A DNA stretch of 14,511 nt from the IMG/VR virus record IMGVR_UViG_3300029079_000067. One strand, given 5' to 3'. Of the stretch, positions 1-12,211 are shown one piece after another. The stretch's first letter is position 1; every line of letters begins with the position of its first letter. Below the pieces are notes generated by a model. It saw only the letters and a program-made list of their open reading frames with translations, was not told where the DNA came from and did not search any database. Made by a program: the position numbers and the translations under genes. Origin of the DNA: a virus (lineage: Duplodnaviria; Heunggongvirae; Uroviricota; Caudoviricetes).

Positions 1-1209
1 ATGTCGGTTTTTCATAACTGGCTGCTTGATATCGCAAGCGGGAATTACTTTATCTACATCAAACGCCTTTCTGCAAACGACACAGGCGCAACAGGTGGCC
101 ATCAGGTCGGACTTTATATCCCCTCAAATATCGTTGAAAAGCTTTTTCCATCTATCAATCATACTCGCGAACTGAACCCTTCAGTCTTCCTTACTGCGCA
201 TGTATCATCCCATGATTGCCCTGATACCCAAGCACGCGCAATTTATTACAACAACCGTTATTTTGGTAAGACCCGAAACGAAAAAAGAATTACGCGCTGG
301 GGGAGAGGAAGTCCATTACAGAACCCTGAAAATACAGGAGCCCTCACAATTCTTGCTTTCAGGTTAAACGAACAGAACACTGACTGTTCCGAGGTAGATA
401 TATGGGTCTGCGTCAATCCCGATGAAGAGGATATCATCGAGTCTGCTATTGGCGAAATCATACCTGGAACCCTAATTTCCGGCCCTGCCGGACAAATTTT
501 GGGCGGATTGTCTCTTCAGCAAACTCCAGTAAATCATAAATATGTTATTCCTGAAGACTGGAAGAAGCGTTTTCCTTCTGGAAACGAAATTATTCAATAT
601 GCTGCTGGCCATTATGCTAAAAACTCCAAGGATCCAGATGAGCAACTGATTGACCGTCGGCGTGTCGAGTATGATATTTTTCTACTCGTCGAGGAATTAC
701 ATGTTCTTGATATTATTAAGAAAGGATTCGATTCTGTAGATGAGTTTATTGCATTAGCCAACTCTGTCAGTAATCGACGTAAATCAAGGGCAGGCAAATC
801 ACTTGAACTTCACCTAGAGAAGCTTTTTATCGAGCACGGACTACGGCATTTCTCCACTCAGGCAGTTACTGAAGGTAATAAAAAACCAGATTTCCTGTTT
901 CCTTCAGCAGAGGCATATCATAACGTTGAATTTCCTGTAGAAAACTTACGTATGCTGGCAGTAAAGACCACCTGCAAAGATCGCTGGCGTCAGATACTGA
1001 ATGAAGCAGATAAAATCCATCAGGTACATTTATTTACACTGCAAGAAGGTGTTTCTTCAGCACAATACCGAGAAATGAAAGATGCGGGTGTCAGACTCGT
1101 TGTACCATCAACTTTACATAAAAAATACCCAGAAGCAGTTAGAGAAGAATTAATAACGCTCGGAGCATTCATTACTGAGCTGATAGAGCTTTACGCTGAA
1201 CTATCATAG
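1..1209 (+). CDS. ecoRIIR: Type IIE restriction endonuclease, EcoRII-like (complete)
   Basis: 402-codon ORF from ATG at position 1 to TAG at 1207-1209. Translation (MSVFHNWLLDIASGNYF...RLSANDTGATGGHQVGLYIP...) matches, from memory, the EcoRII endonuclease along its length; no identity figure computed. Convergent with a cytosine-5 methyltransferase gene, as in EcoRII. Promoter lies outside the window. Confidence 0.88.
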   Translation: MSVFHNWLLDIASGNYFIYIKRLSANDTGATGGHQVGLYIPSNIVEKLFPSINHTRELNPSVFLTAHVSSHDCPDTQARAIYYNNRYFGKTRNEKRITRWGRGSPLQNPENTGALTILAFRLNEQNTDCSEVDIWVCVNPDEEDIIESAIGEIIPGTLISGPAGQILGGLSLQQTPVNHKYVIPEDWKKRFPSGNEIIQYAAGHYAKNSKDPDEQLIDRRRVEYDIFLLVEELHVLDIIKKGFDSVDEFIALANSVSNRRKSRAGKSLELHLEKLFIEHGLRHFSTQAVTEGNKKPDFLFPSAEAYHNVEFPVENLRMLAVKTTCKDRWRQILNEADKIHQVHLFTLQEGVSSAQYREMKDAGVRLVVPSTLHKKYPEAVREELITLGAFITELIELYAELS

Positions 1210-1243: not shown

Positions 1244-2677
1244 TCAAGGCTGCCCAGTCTTACCAGCATCAGCAGAAACAGCTTTGAGGATATAGGGTTC
1301 CAGAAGTCTGGCAACAGCTTCAAATACTGGCACCACAACTGAGTTACCGAACTGCCGATATGACTGAGTATCTGAAACCGGAATACGGAATGGTTTCCCT
1401 CCAGGTTTTTCAAATCCCATAAGGCGTGCGCACTCTCGGGGAGTCAGCCTGCGTGGTCGACGAGCCTGATTACTCTCATTCATAAAGTCAGCCTCTCCCG
1501 TTGCCATATCCCAACCACGATCAATAAGAATTTCTGATCCGTCTTTGTGATATCTGGCAGAAAGTGTGCGTGCAATGCTTTCCTTATTCTCAGGATTGAC
1601 CAACCCAAAGCCAAAACCATTCCCCTTGGCTGCATGCTTTTTGGCGTAGTTATAAAGGTACTCCCATAGTTTTGGCGTAAGTATATATTTACTGTCGACT
1701 ACAGGCTCCAGCAATTCACCAAATGATGGGCGGTGTTCCGGATAAAAACGACTGATATCACGCAAGGTAAACCCCTTGTGAATATTCAGATCTCGTCTAA
1801 ATCCGACCAGAACAATGCGTTCACGATGCTGAGGCAAAAAATGCTTCCCATCGATAATCTTTGGATCGTTTTTTCCCATTTCTGCAGCATCGGCAACTTC
1901 GTAGCCCAGCTCGTCAAGGGTCTCCATAATGACTTTGAAAGTTTTACCCTTATCATGGCTCTTCAGATTTTTGACATTTTCCAGCACAAAAATTGCCGGT
2001 TTTTTTGCTCGTATAATACGTGCCACGTCAAAAAAAAGTGTTCCTTGTGCTTCACATTCAAAACCATGCGCACGACCAAGTGAGTTTTTCTTACTAACAC
2101 CAGCAAGGCTAAATGGCTGGCACGGGAACCCCGCAAGAAGCACATCATGATCCGGCACATGCTCATCAATATATGCATAAGCATCCGTTTCCAATACATC
2201 GGTTTTATCACTCAGCGTGACTTCCCGAATATCGAGATTGAATTTATGCACCTGTTCATCGTTAAACCAGTTGGCCTTGTATGTACGCACAGCATCTTTA
2301 TTCCATTCACTGGTAAAAACACACTGGCCTCCAATGGCCTCAAAACCTTTCCGTATCCCTCCAATTCCAGCAAATAAGTCAATGAAGCGGAAAGCATATT
2401 CCGGATGGTTTGCAGGTGGTTCTGGTAGCATCTTACGCAGAAGAGACTCTTCTACTGAAGTCAACGATTTTGGTAAACACTTGCCATTAATCCAGCGGTT
2501 AATGGTTTCACGGCTCCACTCATTTTTTCCGACTTTTCTCAGTAATTCAGCCACATACTTCTGATCATAGATTTCCAGCACTTTCTCGATAAGCTTTTTA
2601 TCATTTTCCTGTCGCAGCTTTTCTTCCGCCTCGGCTTCCTTCAGCAGATGCTGTGCCAACACTTCAAATTCAGACAT
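1244..2677 (-). CDS. ecoRIIM: DNA (cytosine-5)-methyltransferase, M.EcoRII/Dcm-like
   Basis: Minus-strand ORF 1244-2719. The internal ATG at 2677 has GGAGG 4 nt upstream (plus-strand cctcc at 2682-2686), so 2677 is the preferred start (477 aa); the track start at 2719 adds 14 codons. Canonical C5-MTase motifs present: FAGIGG (motif I), GFPCQPFS (motif IV, catalytic Cys), ENV (motif VI), QHRERIV (motif VIII), RQFGNSV (motif X). Confidence 0.9.
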
Positions 2678-3857
<1,180 letters not shown>

Positions 3858-3876: not shown

Positions 3877-3915
3877 AAACCGCAGCACGATCTTGCATAC
3901 GACGTGCTACGGTTT
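3877..3915. repeat. Imperfect 13-bp inverted repeat overlapping the pin stop codon (possible bidirectional terminator)
   Basis: aaaccgcagcacg (3877-3889) / 13-nt loop / cgtgctacggttt (3903-3915), one mismatch. Lies between the convergent GIY-YIG and pin genes. Flanking T-tracts are weak. Confidence 0.3.
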
Positions 3916-4469
3916 CATTTATCTCCGACCGAAAACTTCTTATACAGTGTCGATATACCAACATCATAGATGATCGCCACCTTCTGGCGAGGAACGCCTG
4001 ATGCAATTAATCGCCCGGCCTGCGCCCATTGTTCTGGTGTAAGTTTGGGACGACGTCCACCAATTCGTCCCTGTGCGCGAGCAGCTTCCAGTCCAGCTTT
4101 TGTTCGTTCAACAATCAGTTCACGCTCCATTTCAGCCAGGGCACCCATCACATGAAAGAAAAAGCGCCCCATTGGGGTACTGGTATCAATTGAATCCGTC
4201 AGACTACGAAAGTTGATGCCTCGTTCGCGCAACTCCTCCACCAGCACGACAAGATGCCGCATACTGCGCCCCAGTCGGTCCAGTTTCCAGACCACCAGCG
4301 TGTCACCTGCCGATAATGTCCTGAGCAGCTTTTTCAGTCCTGGTCTGTCGGACTTTGTACCGCTTATCTTGTCTTCAAAAATCAGCTCGCATCCTGCACA
4401 GTTCAGCGCATTACGTTGTAGATCTGTGTTCTGGTCATTTGTTGACACACGTACATAGCCAATAAGCAT
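3915..4469 (-). CDS. pin: Serine recombinase, DNA invertase of the Pin/Gin/Hin/Cin (Din) family
   Basis: ORF 3915-4505. The product from the internal ATG at 4469 (MLIGYVRVSTNDQNTDLQ..., 184 aa) matches from memory the e14 Pin invertase, with the catalytic Ser in the YVRVST motif and a C-terminal HTH (VAIIYDVGISTLYKK). The 12 extra N-terminal codons of the track ORF are probably not translated. Confidence 0.9.
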   Translation of the reverse strand: MLIGYVRVSTNDQNTDLQRNALNCAGCELIFEDKISGTKSDRPGLKKLLRTLSAGDTLVVWKLDRLGRSMRHLVVLVEELRERGINFRSLTDSIDTSTPMGRFFFHVMGALAEMERELIVERTKAGLEAARAQGRIGGRRPKLTPEQWAQAGRLIASGVPRQKVAIIYDVGISTLYKKFSVGDK

Positions 4470-4495
4470 GGTAGATCTCCCTGACAAAAGCAGGA

Positions 4496-5074
4496 ATGAT
4501 GCCATTTGCTCGTTATTTCTGCATTTTCATAAACGTTGGTTTGGGAGAAGGTTCGGCATTACCCGTTGGCGTGCCTGTTCCGTGGCCTTCCGCCACTCCG
4601 CCAACAGGCTGGCTGAAATGCAACGGTGCCGCTTTTTCTGCAGAAGAATACCCGGAACTGGCAAAGGCTTATCCGACAAATAAATTGCCTGATTTACGTG
4701 GTGAGTTTATTCGTGGCTGGGATGACGGGCGTGGAGTGGATGCGGGACGTGCCTTGCTAAGTCTTCAGGATGACTCTTTTGAAGCGCACAGGCATGAGTC
4801 CTTTTTTTACGCGGGTATTTCTCGCAATGAAATACCATTAAAAAATCTTCCAAGTTCAGACGAGATGCTGACTTTAAGTTCTACAACTAATGCCTTGTCC
4901 CCGGACGGTATTGATGCCACTAATTCGTTAATTGGTAATGATGATTACAACTGTCTGATTGAAGGAAATAAAAATAACAAACGAACAGCGACGGGGTTGA
5001 GTACCAGTATTGTCGGTGCAGCAGAGACACGCCCACGTAATATTTCATTTAATTACATTGTGAGGGCTGCATGA
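4496..5074 (+). CDS. Tail-fibre C-terminal variable cassette (Sv'-like), probably silent in this orientation
   Basis: Translation GVPVPWPSATPPTGWLKCNGAAFSAEEYPELAKAYP...LPDLRGEFIRGWDDGRGVDAGRALL is typical of the host-range C-terminal domain of Mu S / P1 S / e14 Stf tail fibres. It begins at the invertase crossover site and is transcribed away from pin, as in the G/P/C invertible segments. No constant-region N-terminal part lies upstream. Confidence 0.65.
   Translation: MMPFARYFCIFINVGLGEGSALPVGVPVPWPSATPPTGWLKCNGAAFSAEEYPELAKAYPTNKLPDLRGEFIRGWDDGRGVDAGRALLSLQDDSFEAHRHESFFYAGISRNEIPLKNLPSSDEMLTLSSTTNALSPDGIDATNSLIGNDDYNCLIEGNKNNKRTATGLSTSIVGAAETRPRNISFNYIVRAA
4524..4549. other. Candidate invertase crossover site (gix/pix-like 26-bp site)
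   Basis: ttttcataaacgttggtttgggagaa resembles the Gin gix consensus TTCCTGTAAACCGAGGTTTTGGATAA (17 of 26 positions by eye, conserved TAAAC...GGTTT...GGA.AA core). About 55 bp from the pin start and in frame with the tail-fibre cassette. Confidence 0.45.
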
Positions 5075-5298
5075 TGTATAACGCCATCTTGAATAGTAAA
5101 TTTATTGCCACAAAGGCAGGAGAGATTACCGTTTATAACTATGACAGTGAGACACGGGAGTATATTTCTGCATCAACTGAATATCTTGCTGTGGGTGTCG
5201 GTATCCCTGCATATTCCTGTTTAGATGCTCCTGGCACACATAAGGTTGGTTACCCGGAATGGTTTTGCCGACCACGTTGCCGATACACCAGGTCATGA
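5071..5298 (+). pseudogene. Tail-fibre assembly (Tfa/U-like) gene, N-terminal fragment only
   Basis: The first ~55 residues ([37 protein letters not shown]) follow the conserved Tfa N-terminal pattern (I.IYN....EFI......G.PA.S.D.AP). Similarity stops near 5260, where the sequence becomes the antisense of the terminase 3' end. ATGA overlap with the upstream cassette stop. Confidence 0.5.
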
Positions 5299-6832
5299 TG
5301 GGATTGCCGTCATGATGAAAGCGCCCCGATTCAATTGCCGCTTCCAGCTCTTTCATCGGGTCGGACATGTTGGTGTAGTTCTGAATGATGGTGATGGGAT
5401 TCAGGTCTTCATCAGCAAGGTCATGTGACAGCCCGGTCGCCCCGAAGGGGTCGATGGGTGACTCGCTGACCGGGCTGATTTTGTTCGCTGCTTTGGCCTC
5501 TTCGAGGATGTAGCGATAATCCACCTCTGCACCATCGGTAACGGTCAGGACGCCCATTTCCACCCATTTCTGAAAGCGTTCGGCTGTCCGGCGATCTTCA
5601 TTTTTCTCGACGCTGTACACCGTGTCATACGGTACCCAGAAACGCGGGGCCACACTGTAGTAATGCGTTTTACCGTCAATCTCGCGGGTATAAAGTCGCG
5701 CCATGCTGTTCATATCCAGCTTACGCGCCAGGTCAAAGGCCAGAATGCACGGCTGCCCCTCGAACTGCTCAAGGGTCAGTGATTTATCCTCGCAGCTCTG
5801 CCAGCTCACCAGGTTGAAATACGCCGAACGCGCCGACACCCAGATATTGAGGTGTTTTGTTTTAAAGACGTTTGCCAGACGGGCGTTATTTTTCGCACGC
5901 TGCTGCTGACTTAACAAAAATTCGCGATAAACCGACACGCCAATATTTGGATTGGCTTTTTCCAGCACCTGCGGGTCGGTCCAGTCGTCACCTTCATCAA
6001 CGGTATAGATGATCCCGAACAGTTCATCGTTGGGCACCGAGCCGTTGAGCATCTCGATGACTTCCCGCCGCTTGTCGTAGCACGGCCCCTCAATGTTGTA
6101 CCCGGCAGTAGTAATGGCCCACATCAGTGGCTGACGTCGCGCCCCCATCCCGGTAAGCATCGTGGTGTAAAGCGCATCGGTGGCGTGCTCGTGATATTCA
6201 TCCACCACCGCACAGTGGGGTGATGATCCATCACCGGGGTTACCGATCAGCGGTTCAAACCGCGCGCCATCCTCCGGACGGTTCATGTTTGAGGCGTTAA
6301 CCTCAATCCCGAACGCTTCCGTCAGCATGGGCGTGCGTTTACACATCAGTCGCGCCGGGCGAAAGACTTCCCACGCCTGTTTCTCTGTCGTGGCACCGGA
6401 ATACACTTCCGCGCCAAACTCGTTATCACAGGCAAAACAATACAGGGCGACACCGGCAGAGATTGCCGATTTGCCGTTCTTACGGGGGATTTCGGTATAC
6501 ACCTCCCGGAAGCGGCGCAGCCGGGAGCCTTTATTGACCCAGCCAAACGCACAGCAGATCACAAAGAGCTGCCACGGCTCCAGCGTGATGGGCATCCGTT
6601 TGAATGCCCACTCACCCTTGGTGTGCGGCAACAGCTGAATAAATTTGGCGGCCCGTTCAGCCAGGTCCTTGTCGAAGCGGTAACGAAACGACTTACTTTT
6701 TTCCGCCATCAGGTCATCAAGATGGCGCTGGCAGGCCTGAATCACAAACTGGCAGGCCACAATCTTTCCGCGAACGACATCCCGGGCATACTGATTGGCA
6801 GCATTTACGTTGGGGTAAGATTTCCGGCTCAT
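5126..6832 (-). CDS. Phage terminase large subunit (HK97/e14-like); extreme C-terminus replaced at a deletion junction
   Basis: 568-aa ORF with terminase-large-subunit character: N-terminal ATPase region (EIPRKNGKS Walker-A-like) and C-terminal nuclease region. The last ~45 codons (after ...CIGNVVGKT) read through the antisense of the Tfa fragment and do not look terminase-like. Start overlaps the upstream terS stop (ATGA). Confidence 0.85.
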
Positions 6833-7323
6833 GATTCGATGATTTTCAGAAACGGGTTAGTAGCTTTCTTCTGCCCCGCCAGGCCAATCAGACGCTGGCG
6901 GCTGCTGGGGTCGAGTCCGAGCATTGCCCCCGTGCTGCTCATCTCGGACTCCTGTTCTTTTTTGGCGGTCAGCTCAGGATTTTTGACCATACCGCCCATT
7001 GCACCGGTGATGGTGTTGCCCTGTCTGGCAATATTTTTCACGGCACGTCGCCAGAACTCATAGGCCACACACCACCGCTCAAGCACCGCGAGGTCAGTCA
7101 CGCACAGCAGGCCCTGACCGCAAAGTTCTTTAGTTGTCAATTGCCACATGATCGTGGCGAGAGGGAGATCTTCTTCAGCGAACCACTCCGGTGGCTCAAC
7201 ACCTTTGATGGGCGTAAAAACAGGTTCATCTTTATTCAGGGCTCGCTTGCCGGGGTTTCCGGCCAGCGCCTTGCGCGCCGTTGGCTTGGGGCGACGCCCG
7301 GAACGCCCCGCCGTTCCAGCCAT
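6829..7323 (-). CDS. Phage terminase small subunit (P27-family-like)
   Basis: Immediately upstream of and overlapping the large terminase gene. Basic N-terminus ([22 protein letters not shown]). Preferred start is the ATG at 7323 with AGGAG 8 nt upstream; the track start at 7332 is a GTG. Confidence 0.65.
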
Positions 7324-7332
7324 ATGCGGCAC

Positions 7333-7449
7333 TCCTGGTTAAATTTCATTTTTCGCGGGTATAAAAAAACGATGGGGCGGGCAGTCCGGAAGACGTCAGG
7401 TCACAGGGATTTGACCCGCCCCTCCCCCACAGACAGTTGAGAATTATTA
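7333..7449. other. Candidate cos/packaging region between the HNH gene and terS
   Basis: 117-bp non-coding gap holding GC-rich inverted elements (ggggcggg ... cccgcccc). In HK97-like phages cos lies between the HNH endonuclease gene and terS. Positional inference only. Confidence 0.2.
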
Positions 7450-7800
7450 TCACTTTAACCGTTCACGGGCCGTCTTCGCCTTATGACACGGCCAGCACAG
7501 ACTCTGCAGATTACTGTCGGCATCAGTGCCGCCATGTGCTTTAGGGATGATGTGGTCAACGGTTTTCGCCTCACGCACCACACCGGCACGCAGACATAAC
7601 TGACACAGGCCTTTGTCACGTTGCAGTACACGTTCACGGATAGCATCCCATTTCGAACCGTAGCCGCGCTGATGACGGGACTGGCCTGGCTTGTATTGCT
7701 TCCAGCCTTCGCTTTTGTGGCTTTCGCAGTAGCCTGACGGGTCTGTGGTGGTATGGCGGCAGCCACGAACACGGCAGGCTTTTGGGATTCGTGATGGCAT
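7450..7800 (-). CDS. Phage HNH endonuclease (terminase-associated)
   Basis: Product has the HNH zinc-finger pattern CRVRGCRH...C.SH...VDHIIPKAHGG...NLQSLCWPCH. Preferred start is the ATG at 7800 with GGAG 5 nt upstream; the track start at 7899 adds 33 doubtful codons. Confidence 0.8.
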   Translation of the reverse strand: MPSRIPKACRVRGCRHTTTDPSGYCESHKSEGWKQYKPGQSRHQRGYGSKWDAIRERVLQRDKGLCQLCLRAGVVREAKTVDHIIPKAHGGTDADSNLQSLCWPCHKAKTARERLK

Positions 7801-7920
7801 ATGTACTCCAATGAAGAAGCCACCGACATAGCCTCCTCCATTCATCGTGAAACTATTTTCATCTACCCAGTAATGAATTCTTTGTAGAGTTGTGATCAAT
7901 ACAACTCACTAATGGAGAGG

Positions 7921-7942
7921 CTTGTCCAACACGTTGGACAAG
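7921..7942. promoter_or_regulatory. Perfect 10-bp-arm palindrome, operator-like
   Basis: cttgtccaac-ac-gttggacaag: 10-bp perfect inverted arms around a 2-bp centre. A second 7-bp-arm inverted repeat (gagttgt-gatcaat-acaactc) lies at 7887-7907. Both sit in non-coding DNA upstream of the small plus-strand ORF and of the HNH gene. Confidence 0.3.
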
Positions 7943-8022
7943 TTTCCTGTTTGATTTACTGGACACTACAGAAGGACAGAATGCCTTCATCACTCGAATA
8001 ACATCAATTAAGGAGGTTAAAC

Positions 8023-8145
8023 ATGTTTCGTTCCAAAAGTCAGTTGACTGTAATTATTATTACGTCACCTTATGCCAAAGAGCTTTTCCGCTTCACTTTG
8101 AGCCTGATTCACTTCTACCTGACCGGCTCGCCTCTATCTTTCTAA
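8023..8145 (+). CDS. Small ORF (40 aa), hydrophobic, with a consensus ribosome-binding site
   Basis: AGGAGG at 8011-8016, 6-nt spacer, ATG at 8023, TAA at 8143-8145. Product MFRSKSQLTVIIITSPYAKELFRFTLSLIHFYLTGSPLSF. Below the length cutoff of the ORF track. Its 3' end overlaps the 3' end of the Rz1-frame ORF on the other strand. Confidence 0.3.
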   Translation: MFRSKSQLTVIIITSPYAKELFRFTLSLIHFYLTGSPLSF

Positions 8146-8368
8146 TCCCCGCTTTATCCAAATTGCACTGCCATAATGCCGACAATAAACTGACATTTAA
8201 ATCTAGGCTACCTCCATAAGTCAGAGGATTGGGGATAACTGGCTGTGGAGTTTCAGCGAGCAGGTTCGCCGGTAACGGCATCGTTGGAACCTGCACGTAA
8301 ACTGTCCGCGTACTTCCGCAACCGGTCAGCAGCGGCAGCAGGCACAGCACGTGAAGCGCAATCATCAT
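8093..8368 (-). CDS. Rz1-like outer-membrane spanin lipoprotein (o-spanin), overlapped arrangement
   Basis: In the +1 frame relative to Rz. From the tandem ATGs at 8368/8365 the product has a signal peptide plus lipobox (MMIALHVLCLLPLLTGC) and a proline-rich mature region (VPTMPLPANLLAETPQPVIPNPL). It runs past the Rz stop to 8093. Start and true end uncertain. Confidence 0.55.
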   Translation of the reverse strand: MMIALHVLCLLPLLTGCGSTRTVYVQVPTMPLPANLLAETPQPVIPNPLTYGGSLDLNVSLLSALWQCNLDKAGIRKIEASRSGRSESGSK

Positions 8369-8645
8369 TCTCAACAGCCACTTTGATATCTTCCTGGGTT
8401 CTCTGTGACTCCAGTGCGATCTGCTGTTTTGCATGCTGGTTAGCCTCCAGAACTGTATTGACGATTTGTAGTGATTGCAGGACGTTATTGGTAATGGCTG
8501 TTGCTGATTCAGCATTTCGTACAGCCTCATCAGCACGTTTCTTTTCGTGCTGATATTTGCTGTAGTAGTGGTTGGCAGACCAGATGAAAGAACCGATGAC
8601 GGTAAAGAAGAATGCAGCGATAACCAGCTTATAGCTCAACTTCAT
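8253..8645 (-). CDS. Rz-like inner-membrane spanin (i-spanin)
   Basis: 130-aa product with an N-terminal transmembrane segment (LVIAAFFFTVIGSFIW) and a charged, coiled-coil-like periplasmic region. Start overlaps the endolysin 3' end, as in lambda R-Rz. Confidence 0.6.
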   Translation of the reverse strand: MKLSYKLVIAAFFFTVIGSFIWSANHYYSKYQHEKKRADEAVRNAESATAITNNVLQSLQIVNTVLEANQHAKQQIALESQRTQEDIKVAVENDDCASRAVPAAAADRLRKYADSLRAGSNDAVTGEPAR

Positions 8646-9105
8646 TTACCACCCCACCAGCCTCTTTAAACCGGGAAATCAGGTCACCGATTTTATGTTC
8701 ATACTGACCGTAACCTGCACCAGGTAGCGACGCCCAGATATTGCTGCAACGGTCGATAGCCTGACGGATATCACCGCGATCAATCATCGTTAAAGCGCCA
8801 CACTCTTTAATCTGCTGTAATGCCACGGAGTCCTGGCTTCTGGGAGAGAAGTCTTTCAGCCCTAGCTGCTTGCGGTAGGCATCCCACCAACGGGAAAGAA
8901 GCTGGTAACGTCCGGCTGCTGTTGATTTGAGTTTCGGGTTTAGCGTGACAAGTTTGCGAGGATGATCGGAGTAATCAGTAAACAGTTCACCACCGACAAT
9001 AACGTCATAACCGTGGTTACGTGTCGGTTGTCGCCCGTTATCCGTTCCTTCTGACCATGCCACCATATCGAGGAAAGCTTTACGCTGGGAATTTAGTGCC
9101 TGCAT
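8629..9105 (-). CDS. Endolysin, lambda R-type lytic transglycosylase
   Basis: 158-aa product (...QRKAFLDMVAWSEGTDNGRQPTRNHGYDVIVGGELFTDYSDHPRKLVTLNPKLKSTAAGRYQLLSRWWDAYRKQLGLKDFSP...) is near-colinear with phage lambda R as recalled from memory, including the catalytic Glu in WSEGT. Confidence 0.9.
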   Translation of the reverse strand: MQALNSQRKAFLDMVAWSEGTDNGRQPTRNHGYDVIVGGELFTDYSDHPRKLVTLNPKLKSTAAGRYQLLSRWWDAYRKQLGLKDFSPRSQDSVALQQIKECGALTMIDRGDIRQAIDRCSNIWASLPGAGYGQYEHKIGDLISRFKEAGGVVNEVEL

Positions 9106-9108
9106 AAA

Positions 9109-9435
9109 TTACTCCTTCGTGCTACCAAATTTGTTACCGATTACTCGCATTGCAGCCCCACGAATAGCATCGACACCGATCAGCCCAACACCGCCACCAA
9201 TGGCAACAGAAAGCGATTTAGGCCATCCGACATACTCAAGAGCGGATGCAAAGGTCAGCGTCAAAGCGCCACAGAGCAAAATCTCGAGCGTTTTTCGCTT
9301 CCAGCCACCACCACCGCCAAAATAGGCAATGCGCAAGCCAGCCATAACGATCGACATAATCACTGCGCCCAGCGGTGTGTCTCCACGCCACCAGCTCTGG
9401 ACCAACTCCAGCCAGGTATTTGGGTTATGAGGCAT
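9109..9435 (-). CDS. Holin, lambda S-like (class I)
   Basis: 108-aa membrane protein immediately upstream of the endolysin. Hydrophobic segments (GAVIMSIVMAGLRIAYFGGG, LEILLCGALTLTFASAL, VAIGGGVGLIGVDAI) and a basic C-terminal tail, the same architecture as lambda S. Confidence 0.75.
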   Translation of the reverse strand: MPHNPNTWLELVQSWWRGDTPLGAVIMSIVMAGLRIAYFGGGGGWKRKTLEILLCGALTLTFASALEYVGWPKSLSVAIGGGVGLIGVDAIRGAAMRVIGNKFGSTKE

Positions 9436-9771: not shown

Positions 9772-10527
9772 ATGCACTTAGGTTTTCATTCTGAGGGCCA
9801 AGAACAATTTATGACTTTCAAACTTATTAAGCATACGATTAATGTTGTATGGATCTCTAACATCATTACTCCATTGATGTTTTCATCTGAATGGTTTAGA
9901 AGATACGATTTGCTAAGAGAGGAAGATATAGCAAATTCAAACACAACTTTTGATGGTGATTCAATAACAACAGATTACGGTTGGATTGAGATTACGTGCA
10001 TACCAACAAAAGTAGTATTTCAACTGAAAAAAACAGGGCTTGAAAATTCCTTGGCAGACTTAGTGTCATCAATATTTTCTATGTTTCCTCATTCTGAGAC
10101 ACAAGCTGTTGGAATAAACACCCTTTTTGATTATCATTTTAATAATGAAACCAACTGGAATCAGTTAGGAGATGCATTAGTCCCCAAAATTTATTGGCAA
10201 GAACACAATAAATCAGAAATACTTCAGGATGAAGTTGAATATCATTATGGGATGAGAAATTTAGTCATTGCAATAGAAAACTCTAACAAGGAAGATAAAT
10301 CAATTTACAAAGAGGCTATCAATGTCTCTTATGCTTCGTATAGAAAAGTTAGTCCAGATGTATTTGGTTTAAATGTTCAATACAATCACGATCTAGCTTT
10401 GAAAGATATTCGTGACGCTGTTGCATTCACTCAATTACTCCCAAATATAATTCAAAAACATATTTCCGCAGCAATTAAGAATGATATCCTCAGCCATGAA
10501 CAAATGTTTAAGCGGATTCTATCATGA
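9772..10527 (+). CDS. Hypothetical protein, first gene of the AT-rich island
   Basis: 251-aa ORF with AT-rich codon usage. No motif I can recognise. Alternative start at ATG 9811. Stop overlaps the next gene's start (ATGA at 10524-10527). Confidence 0.55.
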   Translation: MHLGFHSEGQEQFMTFKLIKHTINVVWISNIITPLMFSSEWFRRYDLLREEDIANSNTTFDGDSITTDYGWIEITCIPTKVVFQLKKTGLENSLADLVSSIFSMFPHSETQAVGINTLFDYHFNNETNWNQLGDALVPKIYWQEHNKSEILQDEVEYHYGMRNLVIAIENSNKEDKSIYKEAINVSYASYRKVSPDVFGLNVQYNHDLALKDIRDAVAFTQLLPNIIQKHISAAIKNDILSHEQMFKRILS

Positions 10528-11096
10528 ATATATTAACCTATCCTGAAAATTCTTCCAGCCTTAGTAATACACGTTGCGTAACAAAAAAAGAAAAAAACAT
10601 TGAAACATTTGTAAAGACCCACAACATAACTCTTTCCTGTATAATTAAGACAGGTTTTGAAAATTATTCTGAAACATTTGAACAGCAGCAAGAAACTTGC
10701 AGCACAAAATATTCAACAAATATAATTGAAATACCTACTCCGCAACCATTCCCATCTACACAAAAAGGAGTGAAAAATAGAACTCAGCATAAAAAACTCA
10801 AGGCAAGACTTAAAGAAAAAATAACCTTTCTTGAAAAGGCATTAGATACTTATGGTATAATTGACAAAATTGTCAATATGAAATCAAATAAAGAAATACA
10901 TGCTAGAGTATATGATATAAACTCTCATGAATTCATTGATGAGATAACGTTCTCTTCAGATGAATTTAGTAAAAGCGATCAACAAAAACTTGTCGAAAAC
11001 GCTATTTTTTATTGGTATGTTGGTATGGAAAAAACTTTATTTGGACAAGAAAAAAGAGTATCCGAATTTCGCCTAAGAAGAATTTTTAAACAATAA
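10524..11096 (+). CDS. Hypothetical protein, second gene of the AT-rich island
   Basis: 190-aa ORF, translationally coupled to the upstream gene. Lys/Arg-rich central stretch (KGVKNRTQHKKLKARLKEK). No recognisable catalytic motif. Confidence 0.55.
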   Translation: MNILTYPENSSSLSNTRCVTKKEKNIETFVKTHNITLSCIIKTGFENYSETFEQQQETCSTKYSTNIIEIPTPQPFPSTQKGVKNRTQHKKLKARLKEKITFLEKALDTYGIIDKIVNMKSNKEIHARVYDINSHEFIDEITFSSDEFSKSDQQKLVENAIFYWYVGMEKTLFGQEKRVSEFRLRRIFKQ

Positions 11097-11119
11097 TTAG
11101 AAATTACGCAATACGGTGA

Positions 11120-12211
11120 ATGCAGGTGCCTACTGTTCAAAACTCTATCTGTGAAACAATTGTTTTTGGTAAAGGTATTGGCGAATCAATTGCCGTTCGT
11201 CTTGGGTTAAATGAATGGATGATTATTGATTCCTGTTTAAATGATAATAAACGCCCCGCAGCATTAGATTATCTGAAAGAAAAAGGTGTTAATCCACAAG
11301 ATGAAGTAAAACTGATAGTCATTAGTCATTTTCACGATGATCATATTAAAGGGATAGCCGAAATTATTAATAGTTGCAAAAATGCAAAAGTTGTAATTAG
11401 CGCAGCATTGAACACATCTGAATTTAGAGGATATATTAATGCACTAAGTGTTAATGGTGAGGATATGGCAAAAACTAAAGAAATAAACAAGGTCATGTCT
11501 TTATTCTATGATTTGCACAAAAATGATCGTCTTGTCCATGCAAAAAAAGACTGCATACTATTCAAAAGCAGCGAGAATATTCAAGTACATTCGTTATCGC
11601 CTTCTGATATGGATATAACAAACTCTGATCTTGAATTCGCAAACTCTACAAAATTATCATCAAATTTTAGCGAAATAGCCATGTCTGCTAAATTAGTTAA
11701 TCCTAATCACTACTGCGTTGTAATCAGAATATGCTCTCCAACATCAGAAAATAATGAAGTATTATTAGGCGCAGATTTAGAAGTTAGTAAAAACACTGGA
11801 TGGAATTCCGTTTGCAATGCAATAAATCGTCCAGAACCAAACTTAGCAGGTATTTTCAAACTTCCACACCACGGTTCCCAAACAGGCTTTCATGAGGAAA
11901 CATGGAACAAGCTAATCAAAAAAGGCCCTATTTCGATTTTAACCACTTATGATAAATCATCACTACCACGGCAGGATATGATCGACCTCTACAAATCAAA
12001 ATCATCAGCATTATACTGTACATCGATGCCTAAAAGTGATAACGCTCAAGAAAAATCACCTGCGATTGCTGAAGCACGGAGCATATTAGCGAAGATGAAA
12101 AGTTCAGTTTCATTTTCAAATAATAACAATAAATTTGGAATAGTTGCTGTTAGTAATTGCTTAACGTCTAGTCCTAAGGTTGAAACACATTACGCTGCTG
12201 TTTGCTTATAA
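11120..12211 (+). CDS. Metallo-beta-lactamase-fold hydrolase (putative nuclease or phosphodiesterase), third gene of the island
   Basis: 363-aa ORF with the MBL signature HxHxDH (VISHFHDDHIKG), an upstream Asp strand (WMIIDSC), a later metal-ligand Asp (LGADLE) and a PHHGS motif (KLPHHGSQTG) as in ComEC-type MBL domains. About 90 extra C-terminal residues. GTG at 11126 is an alternative start with GGTGA 8 nt upstream. Confidence 0.75.
   Translation: MQVPTVQNSICETIVFGKGIGESIAVRLGLNEWMIIDSCLNDNKRPAALDYLKEKGVNPQDEVKLIVISHFHDDHIKGIAEIINSCKNAKVVISAALNTSEFRGYINALSVNGEDMAKTKEINKVMSLFYDLHKNDRLVHAKKDCILFKSSENIQVHSLSPSDMDITNSDLEFANSTKLSSNFSEIAMSAKLVNPNHYCVVIRICSPTSENNEVLLGADLEVSKNTGWNSVCNAINRPEPNLAGIFKLPHHGSQTGFHEETWNKLIKKGPISILTTYDKSSLPRQDMIDLYKSKSSALYCTSMPKSDNAQEKSPAIAEARSILAKMKSSVSFSNNNNKFGIVAVSNCLTSSPKVETHYAAVCL

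Follow-up and report, generated by a model that had tools for sequence, protein, structure and literature searches.

The viral record IMGVR_UViG_3300029079_000067 of the IMG/VR database comprises 14,511 nucleotides of a tailed phage of the Caudoviricetes, and this whole stretch is referred to here as the window. It represents an SfIV-type Escherichia coli prophage remnant. Positions 7750-8300, used as a 551-bp query, are 100% identical to a region of E. coli DP051, and Shigella phage SfIV shares about 86-88% identity with the window. An open reading frame (ORF) of 40 codons, named ORF40, lies on its plus strand. Read along this strand, the putative cassette to which it belongs consists of P1 (a copy of a lytic-phage promoter), a hairpin, P2 (a second promoter copy), a 52-nt leader, a consensus Shine-Dalgarno (SD) sequence, and the 40-codon ORF. 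The elements are located as follows.

7896-7917, plus strand: P1, copy of a Berlinvirus-type promoter (T7 group, BA14/285P/FE44), TCAATACAACTCACTAATGGAG, with predicted +1 at G7914, facing ORF40
7917-7946, plus strand: 13-bp hairpin with a T-rich tail, GTTTCCTGTTTGATTT, terminator-like by scan, between P1 and P2
7954-7975, plus strand: P2, copy of a Vectrevirus promoter (K1E/K1-5, SP6 group), ATTTACTGGACACTACAGAAGG, with predicted +1 at G7971, facing ORF40
7971-7988, plus strand: predicted 5-bp stem-loop GAAGG...CCTTC at the 5' end of the P2 transcript, from the minimum free energy fold of 7971-8160
8011-8016, plus strand: Shine-Dalgarno AGGAGG, read from the sequence, with a 6-nt spacer TTAAAC before the ATG
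8023-8145, plus strand: ORF40, ATG start, 40 amino acids, MFRSKSQLTVIIITSPYAKELFRFTLSLIHFYLTGSPLSF, with a conserved C-terminal motif, LFRFTLSLIHFYLTGSPLSF, and a hypervariable N-terminal half

The micro-gene and its upstream elements

A first-pass annotation of this sequence had singled out the 40-codon frame with AGGAGG near its ATG and had described it as convergent on spanin genes; the coordinates, the 6-nt spacer, and the strands all agree. ORF40 converges on the lysis genes, all of which are encoded by the minus strand. The local DNA is not all non-coding, as had been supposed, because the 3' end of ORF40 overlaps lysC, the gene of an Rz1-like outer-membrane spanin (o-spanin): the last 53 nt of the ORF (8093-8145) correspond to the last 17 codons and the stop of lysC on the other strand. 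ORF40 had also been regarded as unannotated. This is true of RefSeq, where the Prokaryotic Genome Annotation Pipeline (PGAP) places no feature at the position of ORF40 in the identical DP051 region, but the exact protein has been deposited on 382 contigs as 'hypothetical protein', and a homologue is annotated in one phage record (URC10065.1).

The product had been characterized as small and hydrophobic. With 40 residues it is small, but its hydrophobicity is only moderate: the grand average of hydropathy (GRAVY) is 0.55, and the top 17-residue Kyte-Doolittle window reaches 1.05 against a usual transmembrane cut-off of 1.6. In the family as a whole, most types are clearly hydrophobic, 36 of 58 members score at least 1.6, and the median best 17-residue window is 1.91. 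The ORF40 peptide has no lipobox cysteine. Apart from the 5' stem-loop, the mRNA that would start at P2 (7971-8160) is structured to a level like that of shuffled sequence (z = -0.45).

Searches for known relatives gave little. Up to 14 peptide variants compared with Pfam, NCBIfam, PHROGs, and PADLOC belonged to no credible family; the only matches were weak, namely a sub-threshold one to MscL (E = 0.15) and unnamed families in PHROGs (E >= 0.019), and PADLOC returned nothing. None of the type I toxin families in Pfam and NCBIfam, including Hok/Gef, Ldr, TisB, Ibs, ShoB, Fst, and others, contained these peptides. The Pfam comparison likewise revealed no match of the ORF40 peptide to Bor/Iss, with which it has only position and orientation in common. 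Rfam yielded nothing relevant and no small RNA (sRNA), either at gathering thresholds or at E values up to 10. Protein cluster look-ups returned only names such as 'hypothetical' or 'uncharacterised'. Neither the supplements of the ribosome profiling (Ribo-seq) study of small genes in enterohaemorrhagic E. coli (EHEC) Sakai nor those of 'Cryptic bacterial microproteome' held a matching peptide or DNA string, and the cassette is absent from the Sakai Sp3 prophage. No description of the cassette was found in the open-access full-text literature, and T7 promoters go unmentioned in the paper on the PD-T7 selection.

An alignment of the upstream regions of all cassette types exposed conserved motifs resembling promoters of phage single-subunit RNA polymerases, and follow-up searches confirmed this identity. 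The first-pass annotation missed this decisive feature, two copies of lytic-phage promoters and a hairpin directly upstream of the ORF. Their presence moves the likely logic of the locus from a moron or type I toxin expressed in the lysogen to a gene switched on by an invader. Both promoter copies are oriented toward ORF40.

In P1, positions 7896-7915 agree with the consensus TCAATACAACTCACTAATGG(G) in all 20 bases; over the full 22-mer there are two mismatches, which follow +1. It is the sole match in the window at up to three mismatches, and none of 200 shuffled sequences contained one. The 20-mer TCAATACAACTCACTAATGG is present in several copies per lytic contig of 38-40 kb, and it was detected in 159 T7-group phage records, at 2-6 places in each, including 285P, P694, S523, Yersinia phage Berlin, and Erwinia phage FE44. 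The corresponding site in FE44 is annotated as a 'phage-specific promoter'. Among 101 cassette loci, 61 carry exactly the P1 variant of the window.

P2 matches its consensus of about 22 nt, ATTTACTGGACACTATAGAAG(G/A), at 21 of 22 bases, the lone mismatch being C for T at -2, and differs by one base from ATTTACTGGACACTATAGAAGG. Again, no other match occurs in the window at three mismatches or fewer, nor any in 200 shuffles. Its score with a position weight matrix (PWM) is 31.7, and the phage K1E scores 28-37 at its own sites. The consensus string is found at 11 sites in K1E, all on the coding (+) strand, one of them between genes 14 and 15. The motif was identified in 531 places of 108 phage records (Vectrevirus, SP6 group); in IMG/VR it is multi-copy in contigs of 43-45 kb and single-copy in each prophage contig. 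In its consensus form and together with the leader, it occurs in 628 of 5426 E. coli genomes, always in unannotated DNA, with at least 99% identity over 31 nt in 520 of them. P2 copies vary mainly at -12 to -10, where CTG, AAT, GGT, and CTT are found, and lytic contigs show CTG and GGT too. In T7-type polymerases, promoter specificity is set by these positions. The SfIV allele of P2, with GGT at -12 to -10, matches an SP6-type string at 20 of 21 bases.

The hairpin between the two promoter copies folds at -21.1 kcal/mol (z = -4.2) and is supported by covariation. Among 11 variants, three base pairs have been altered on both sides, 94.4% of the cells are paired, and none of 500 shuffles equalled this. 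It has the G+C-containing stem-loop and T-run of a terminator together with a conserved structure, the T-run being interrupted (GTTTCCTGTTTGATTT). The element is terminator-like, a putative terminator for host RNA polymerase on the plus strand, and it could also form a 5' stem-loop on a transcript started at P1 and possibly stabilize it. Other roles were considered for the hairpin and the motifs. An operator, a sigma-70 promoter, and a cos-related site were rejected, since the compensatory changes favor an RNA hairpin and the hexamers misfit sigma-70; the cos-related reading also fails because cos lies beyond the HNH gene, the SfIV record ending 58 bp past HNH. A simple scan, which weak or unconventional host promoters would escape, covered both strands of 7300-8700 and an iss-type locus and detected no sigma-70-like promoter. 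The Rfam and promoter scans did not reveal an antisense sRNA or a promoter for one, a result compatible with a novel sRNA.

Conservation, host matching, and genomic context

A block corresponding to approximately 7826-8184 is present in 739 of 5426 complete E. coli genomes. In place of the SfIV-type lysis genes, most of these carriers have a lambda-type lysis cassette and iss/bor. In these iss-type loci, a 3' remnant of 132 nt is all that is left of lysC, and iss/bor follows the micro-ORF on the same strand at a distance of about 180 nt. The cassette is intact beside this remnant, and ORF40 is therefore not tied to the overlapping spanin. This remnant, between the micro-ORF and iss, is itself unusually conserved, with 5 of 82 sites variable (positions 2394-2476 of locus L005 and equivalents), and some phage records annotate it as a 47-residue 'DUF4347 fragment'. 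In E. coli WY517-2 (locus L007, 1618-2476), the block from HNH to the cassette is partly duplicated, with HNH truncated, and the cassette stands beside a different terminase module of lambda type.

The comparison set comprises 101 related loci with 42 distinct sequences. In every one of them the ORF is open and 40 codons long, and none of the 101 departs from the string AAGGAGG, 6 nt, ATG. The pairing of SD and ATG had been judged unlikely to be accidental, and this has been borne out: the invariance of the string, together with a frame that stays open in each of the 42 distinct sequences, makes ORF40 more than a chance frame. The allele of the window was recovered at 98-100% identity in several independent contigs.

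Conservation of the reading frame with a coding-like pattern of changes had been proposed as a check on the ORF. The frame is kept everywhere, and the pattern is coding-like in one half of the gene and not in the other. In codons 21-40 nearly all changes are synonymous, with a ratio of non-synonymous to synonymous polymorphism (pN/pS) of 0.05 and 1/1/6 changes at the first, second, and third codon positions. The third positions of these codons are the second positions in the lysC frame. Codons 2-20 (window 8026-8085) are hypervariable, with changes that are almost all non-synonymous and include no indels; pN/pS is 1.74, and the changes per codon position are 11/12/6. The flanks of this segment are far more conserved. 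Diversifying selection or a recombination mosaic could account for the hypervariable N-terminal half.

The explanation of the C-terminal conservation as a by-product of LysC was rejected: the changes in the overlap are silent in the ORF40 frame but replace residues in LysC, and the LysC tails vary. Past the residues ...CNLDKAGIRKIE, the LysC tails differ in sequence and length together with the overlapping micro-ORF, as seen in the window (8093-8122) and in loci L130, L183, L160, and L141. The opposite-strand gene seems to determine how LysC ends. The coding signal within the iss-type group is weak, and therefore the case for selection on ORF40 rests on comparisons across genera. In Klebsiella phages, the motif F-x-LS-x-x-H-x-x-LTG-x-PL-x-F is retained across about 11 synonymous changes, and the overlapping LysC tail differs in sequence and length.

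A sample independent of the ORF was obtained by scanning IMG/VR for DNA encoding the LysC motif CNLDKAG, just past the ORF stop, which yielded 67 loci. An SD-led ORF of 28-45 codons occupies the same convergent slot and ends at the same TAA in 61 of these 67 viral contigs. The sampled micro-ORFs belong to more than 12 sequence types, which show little or no similarity to one another, and SDs of the AAGGAGG type also precede unrelated-looking micro-ORFs of Klebsiella. In three Klebsiella types, the part outside the lysC overlap has pN/pS values of 0.38, 0.07, and 0.21, with changes per codon position of 6/0/7, 2/0/7, and 3/3/11. A scan of genome contigs with a degenerate pattern of the LysC motif found only four relevant enterobacterial loci; the locus of Pseudocitrobacter has a micro-ORF, and those of Enterobacter and Pseudescherichia have none. 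On this comparative sequence evidence, ORF40 is a genuine, selected, and probably translated micro-gene of a fast-evolving and so far undescribed family.

The Klebsiella cassettes have the same layout with different promoters. Their promoter TAATAGTGGCGAGTATAGAA occurs in 12 coding-strand copies in Klebsiella phage VLCpiA2a (Molineuxvirinae) and in 7-10 copies in many Klebsiella podophages of 44-46 kb, and a Przondovirus-type site, AATTAGGGCCCACTATAGAGAC, is found upstream of the hairpin. In the prophage contigs L171, L168, L177, and L130, as many as three promoter-like sites stand in tandem at about 40-165 nt before the micro-ORF. They are the Przondovirus-type site ahead of the hairpin, the VLCpiA2a-type site behind it, and a further motif, AAGTTACACAATAGAAC. 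The Klebsiella cassettes carry promoters of Klebsiella podophages, and therefore the promoter copies match lytic phages of the same host genus. Further promoter-like classes (AATTAGAGACCACTATAGAAC, ATTAAGGGCTGACTATAGAAGC) were noticed 40-70 nt upstream of the micro-ORFs of IMG/VR loci L161, L165, L174, L187, and L215, below the threshold of both PWMs described next.

The placement of the sites is strict. PWMs built from the sites of K1E and of VLCpiA2a were run on both strands of the 67 ORF-independent loci, covering 1.19 million positions, with a threshold of at least 20. The 41 sites reaching it are all situated within 240 nt upstream of the micro-ORF and on its strand, and none was found elsewhere or in reverse. 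A tblastn search of the peptides against 50,697 phage records identified homologues in temperate phages only and none in SP6- or T7-like phages, so the cassette is not simply a captured lytic-phage gene. The prophage of the window is lambdoid and encodes no polymerase of this kind, and P1 and P2 are each present in a single copy.

The other genes of the window are those of a degraded prophage and its surroundings.

9109-9435, minus strand: holin, lysis gene
8629-9105, minus strand: lysin, lysis gene
8253-8645, minus strand: Rz-like inner-membrane spanin (i-spanin) of the DUF2570 type, lysis gene
8093-8368, minus strand: lysC, Rz1-like o-spanin, lysis gene; Pfam LysC PF23793, E = 5.4e-17; annotated by PGAP in the identical DP051 region
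7450-7800, minus strand: HNH endonuclease
6829-7332, minus strand: P27-family small terminase
3084-3857, plus strand: GIY-YIG protein of 257 residues; full-length match to PD-T4-3 (PADLOC, E = 4.7e-140) and a Pfam LEM-3-like GIY-YIG domain
1-1209, plus strand, and 1244-2719, minus strand: restriction-modification pair; type II restriction endonuclease and DNA cytosine methyltransferase according to PGAP on DP051

Here lysC is the context of the cassette and not a part of it. The large terminase gene (terL), on the minus strand, is truncated and is a PGAP pseudogene in DP051. At approximately 3915-6832, terL abuts tail-fiber fragments and a pinE-type invertase, and head and tail genes are missing. 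The restriction-modification pair flanks the prophage remnant. PD-T4-3 is an anti-phage defense protein. Between the Q antiterminator gene and the holin gene, three plus-strand genes (9772-12211) oppose the late operon; two are hypothetical, and the third encodes a hydrolase of the metallo-beta-lactamase (MBL) fold with weak PADLOC matches (RTasMBL, 2e-11; LmuA, 6e-7). These three genes are a candidate defense moron, and a processive phage polymerase starting from P1 or P2 could in principle reach them. A defense-rich context of this kind, with the restriction-modification pair, PD-T4-3, and the MBL-fold gene, fits a defensive role of the cassette.

A possible invader-triggered switch and its alternatives

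The explanation that we favor, with a probability of about 0.6, is that ORF40 is the payload of a cassette triggered by an invader: a phage polymerase would transcribe it, and the small hydrophobic effector would then abort or exclude the infection. Transcription triggered by the invader is inferred because of the identity of the promoters and because no host promoter was found. In the uninfected cell ORF40 would be silent, as it has no detectable sigma-70 promoter, and the hairpin with its T-rich tail would halt host polymerase arriving from upstream. An infecting podophage of the Berlinvirus or Vectrevirus type would make its own RNA polymerase. This enzyme would recognize the promoter copy in the prophage, initiate at P1 or P2, and transcribe the micro-gene strongly, and the strong SD would ensure rapid and efficient translation. 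The peptide would damage the infected cell or disturb the phage cycle, with the inner membrane as its most likely site of action, leading to abortive infection or exclusion and possibly to the protection of the population.

A small membrane-active peptide, such as a type I toxin, was the product first envisaged for ORF40. The more general half of this proposal still stands, as a small membrane-active effector is the most plausible product, with hydrophobicity alone suggesting insertion into the membrane; the toxin half has found neither a family match nor an antisense sRNA or promoter. In a wider formulation, in which belief and doubt are evenly balanced, the cassette may exemplify a widespread class of antitoxin-free promoter-trap defense in enterobacterial prophages. 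Members would combine a host-matched array of podophage promoters (one of the T7 group and one or two of the SP6 group), an insulating hairpin, and a fast-evolving effector of 32-41 residues. The polymerase of the invader would serve both as sensor input and as executioner, and retargeting would occur via the bases at -12 to -10 or by promoter swaps.

Several observations weigh against this explanation. The hairpin lies between P1 and ORF40 and could terminate transcripts started at P1 as well. At -4 to +1, P2 of the window reads TACAG where all 11 K1E sites read TATAG, and the C at -2 may weaken this copy; among the 101 cassette loci, the exact P2 consensus is present in 65 and TATAG at -4 to +1 in 78, and the variant of the window in only 7. 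The peptide of the window is the least hydrophobic of the family, its best value of 1.05 comparing with values of at least 2 (about 2.0-2.6) in the Klebsiella types. The N-terminal pN/pS of 1.74 could reflect an arms race or simply no constraint. In the iss-type group the C-terminal half and the adjacent lysC remnant are equally conserved, with about 6% variable sites in each. The Klebsiella motif AAGTTACACAATAGAAC is weakly supported as a promoter: its multi-copy matches in the Klebsiella phages KL01 and 6939 are weak, and a 14-mer scan for it was swamped by chance matches.

Some of these observations lead to the alternative that survives best, which is compatible with an invader-triggered function of the family and concerns only the copy in the window. 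This copy might be decaying and non-functional within a prophage remnant, the family being real. We regard this as unlikely, at perhaps a chance in five. The C at the otherwise invariant -2 position of P2, the least hydrophobic peptide of the family, the truncated terL, and the replaced structural genes would all be expected of a decaying copy, but it retains an intact ORF, SD, P1, and hairpin, its allele recurs in several independent contigs, and the exact protein is on 382.

A second alternative, for which the odds are clearly poorer, is an ordinary moron. ORF40 would then be a small membrane protein made by the host polymerase for lysogenic conversion, perhaps with Iss/Bor, and the promoter strings would be functionless relics of recombination. 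The slot after the spanin genes had been compared from the beginning with that of the lambda moron bor. The comparison holds for position and orientation, about 180 nt upstream of iss/bor, and it fails for the peptide, which is not Bor-like. The slot, opposite to the late genes, is the classic one for a moron, most E. coli relatives have iss/bor directly behind the micro-ORF and in the same orientation, and a weak or unconventional host promoter is what the simple scan would miss. Against a moron stand the lack of any sigma-70-like promoter in the window or in an iss-type locus and the terminator-like hairpin upstream. Relics would also hardly have been kept in 628 genomes, essentially perfect in 520, always on the strand of the ORF and immediately upstream of it, and they leave the replacement by Klebsiella-phage promoters in Klebsiella unexplained.

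Slightly less probable again is the view that the RNA, or transcription itself, is the effector and that translation is incidental. Transcripts might run antisense through the lysis cassette and onward into the genes at 9772-12211, or the promoters might act as a polymerase decoy. T7-type polymerases are highly processive, no terminator is evident past ORF40, and transcripts from P1 or P2 would cover the lysC, Rz-like, lysin, and holin genes in antisense. An RNA effector does not readily explain the invariant SD and ATG, the ORF length kept over more than 12 very different sequences, or pN/pS values well below 1 in several types. Moreover, the downstream content varies among E. coli contexts (lysC in some, iss in others), and a single site cannot titrate a polymerase, as a decoy would have to do.

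A type I toxin-antitoxin system stabilizing the prophage is improbable. Its antitoxin would be the convergent lysC/late transcript or an unseen sRNA. The small and partly hydrophobic peptide, the very strong SD, the prophage location, and the 53-nt 3' overlap between ORF40 and lysC recall such systems. The 14 variants match no toxin family, though, Rfam contains no corresponding sRNA, no promoter was detected for a toxin or an antisense RNA, and the form of the cassette is kept where lysC is truncated. The late transcript cannot be a standing antitoxin, because it is not made in the lysogen. A spurious ORF, conserved merely through its overlap with lysC and recent common descent, can be dismissed as very improbable: in the iss-type group its C-terminal half is conserved only as is the lysC remnant and its N-terminal half lacks purifying selection, but substitutions in the overlap spare the ORF40 peptide and alter LysC; SD, ATG, and length are retained in types without detectable similarity, and the ORF is present in 61 of the 67 ORF-independent loci.

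If the invader-triggered cassette is real, a defense that standard annotation and defense-finding tools overlook is present in roughly one-eighth of the complete E. coli genomes and in many genomes of Klebsiella. It would escape these tools because its gene has only 40 codons and because a promoter, not a protein, serves as the sensor. It would represent a simple and directly testable principle of immunity, that of borrowing the promoter of the enemy. T7-like and SP6-like phages are favored for therapy against E. coli K1 and Klebsiella, and the cassette may then explain their host range in part. An arms race would be predicted at the promoter specificity bases and at the N-terminus of the effector, and the cassettes would offer naturally orthogonal, infection-triggered switches for engineering. 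Even if the defensive function fails, near-exact copies of lytic-phage promoters, conserved in hundreds of bacterial genomes, need explaining.

Relation to known systems

By sequence comparison, the cassette is outside every toxin, holin, Bor/Iss, or defense family tested, and the principle that it would follow is a known one, prophage defense triggered by the transcription of an invader. The nearest natural precedent is nonA of the Bacillus subtilis prophage SPbeta. This gene encodes a small transmembrane protein, is induced by the sigma factors of the invading phage SP10, and aborts SP10 infection (PMC8270828). Like nonA, ORF40 encodes a small protein in a prophage, and it would likewise be transcribed through the machinery of the invader and abort the infection. 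The two differ in their sensors, since nonA depends on sigma-like factors acting with host RNA polymerase, whereas ORF40 would respond through copies of single-subunit polymerase promoters, arranged in tandem and derived from two phage families. The host of ORF40 is Gram-negative, its payload gene overlaps a spanin gene, and the likeness to nonA is drawn here from description.

The same logic has been used deliberately in lactococci. Engineered suicide of this type couples a lethal gene to a promoter that responds only to an infecting phage, as with a phage middle promoter and a restriction cassette. Such phage-triggered suicide systems, mentioned in PMC3530524, are man-made; the ORF40 cassette, for which the same logic is proposed, is natural and widespread and has a payload of about 40 residues.

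With the type I toxins Hok, TisB, Ldr, and Ibs, ORF40 shares a very small hydrophobic peptide, a strong SD, location on a mobile element, and a plausible action at the membrane. Its silence, unlike theirs, would stem from the absence of a usable promoter and not from an RNA antitoxin. With lambda bor and iss it shares the slot after the spanin genes, opposite to the late operon. Bor is expressed in lysogens, whereas ORF40 has no detectable host promoter, no Bor/Iss homology, and no lipobox.

The promoters themselves differ in use from those of Vectrevirus and Berlinvirus. There they are multi-copy on the coding strand and serve phage genes, whereas the copies in the cassette are single and serve one micro-gene. 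The use of an incoming phage's transcription factor by a resident element is familiar from satellite P4, the late promoters of which are activated by Ogr of phage P2. The proposed trigger of the cassette would be of the same nature. Satellites, however, exploit their helper to spread, whereas the cassette, which lacks functions for packaging and replication, appears to serve defense alone.

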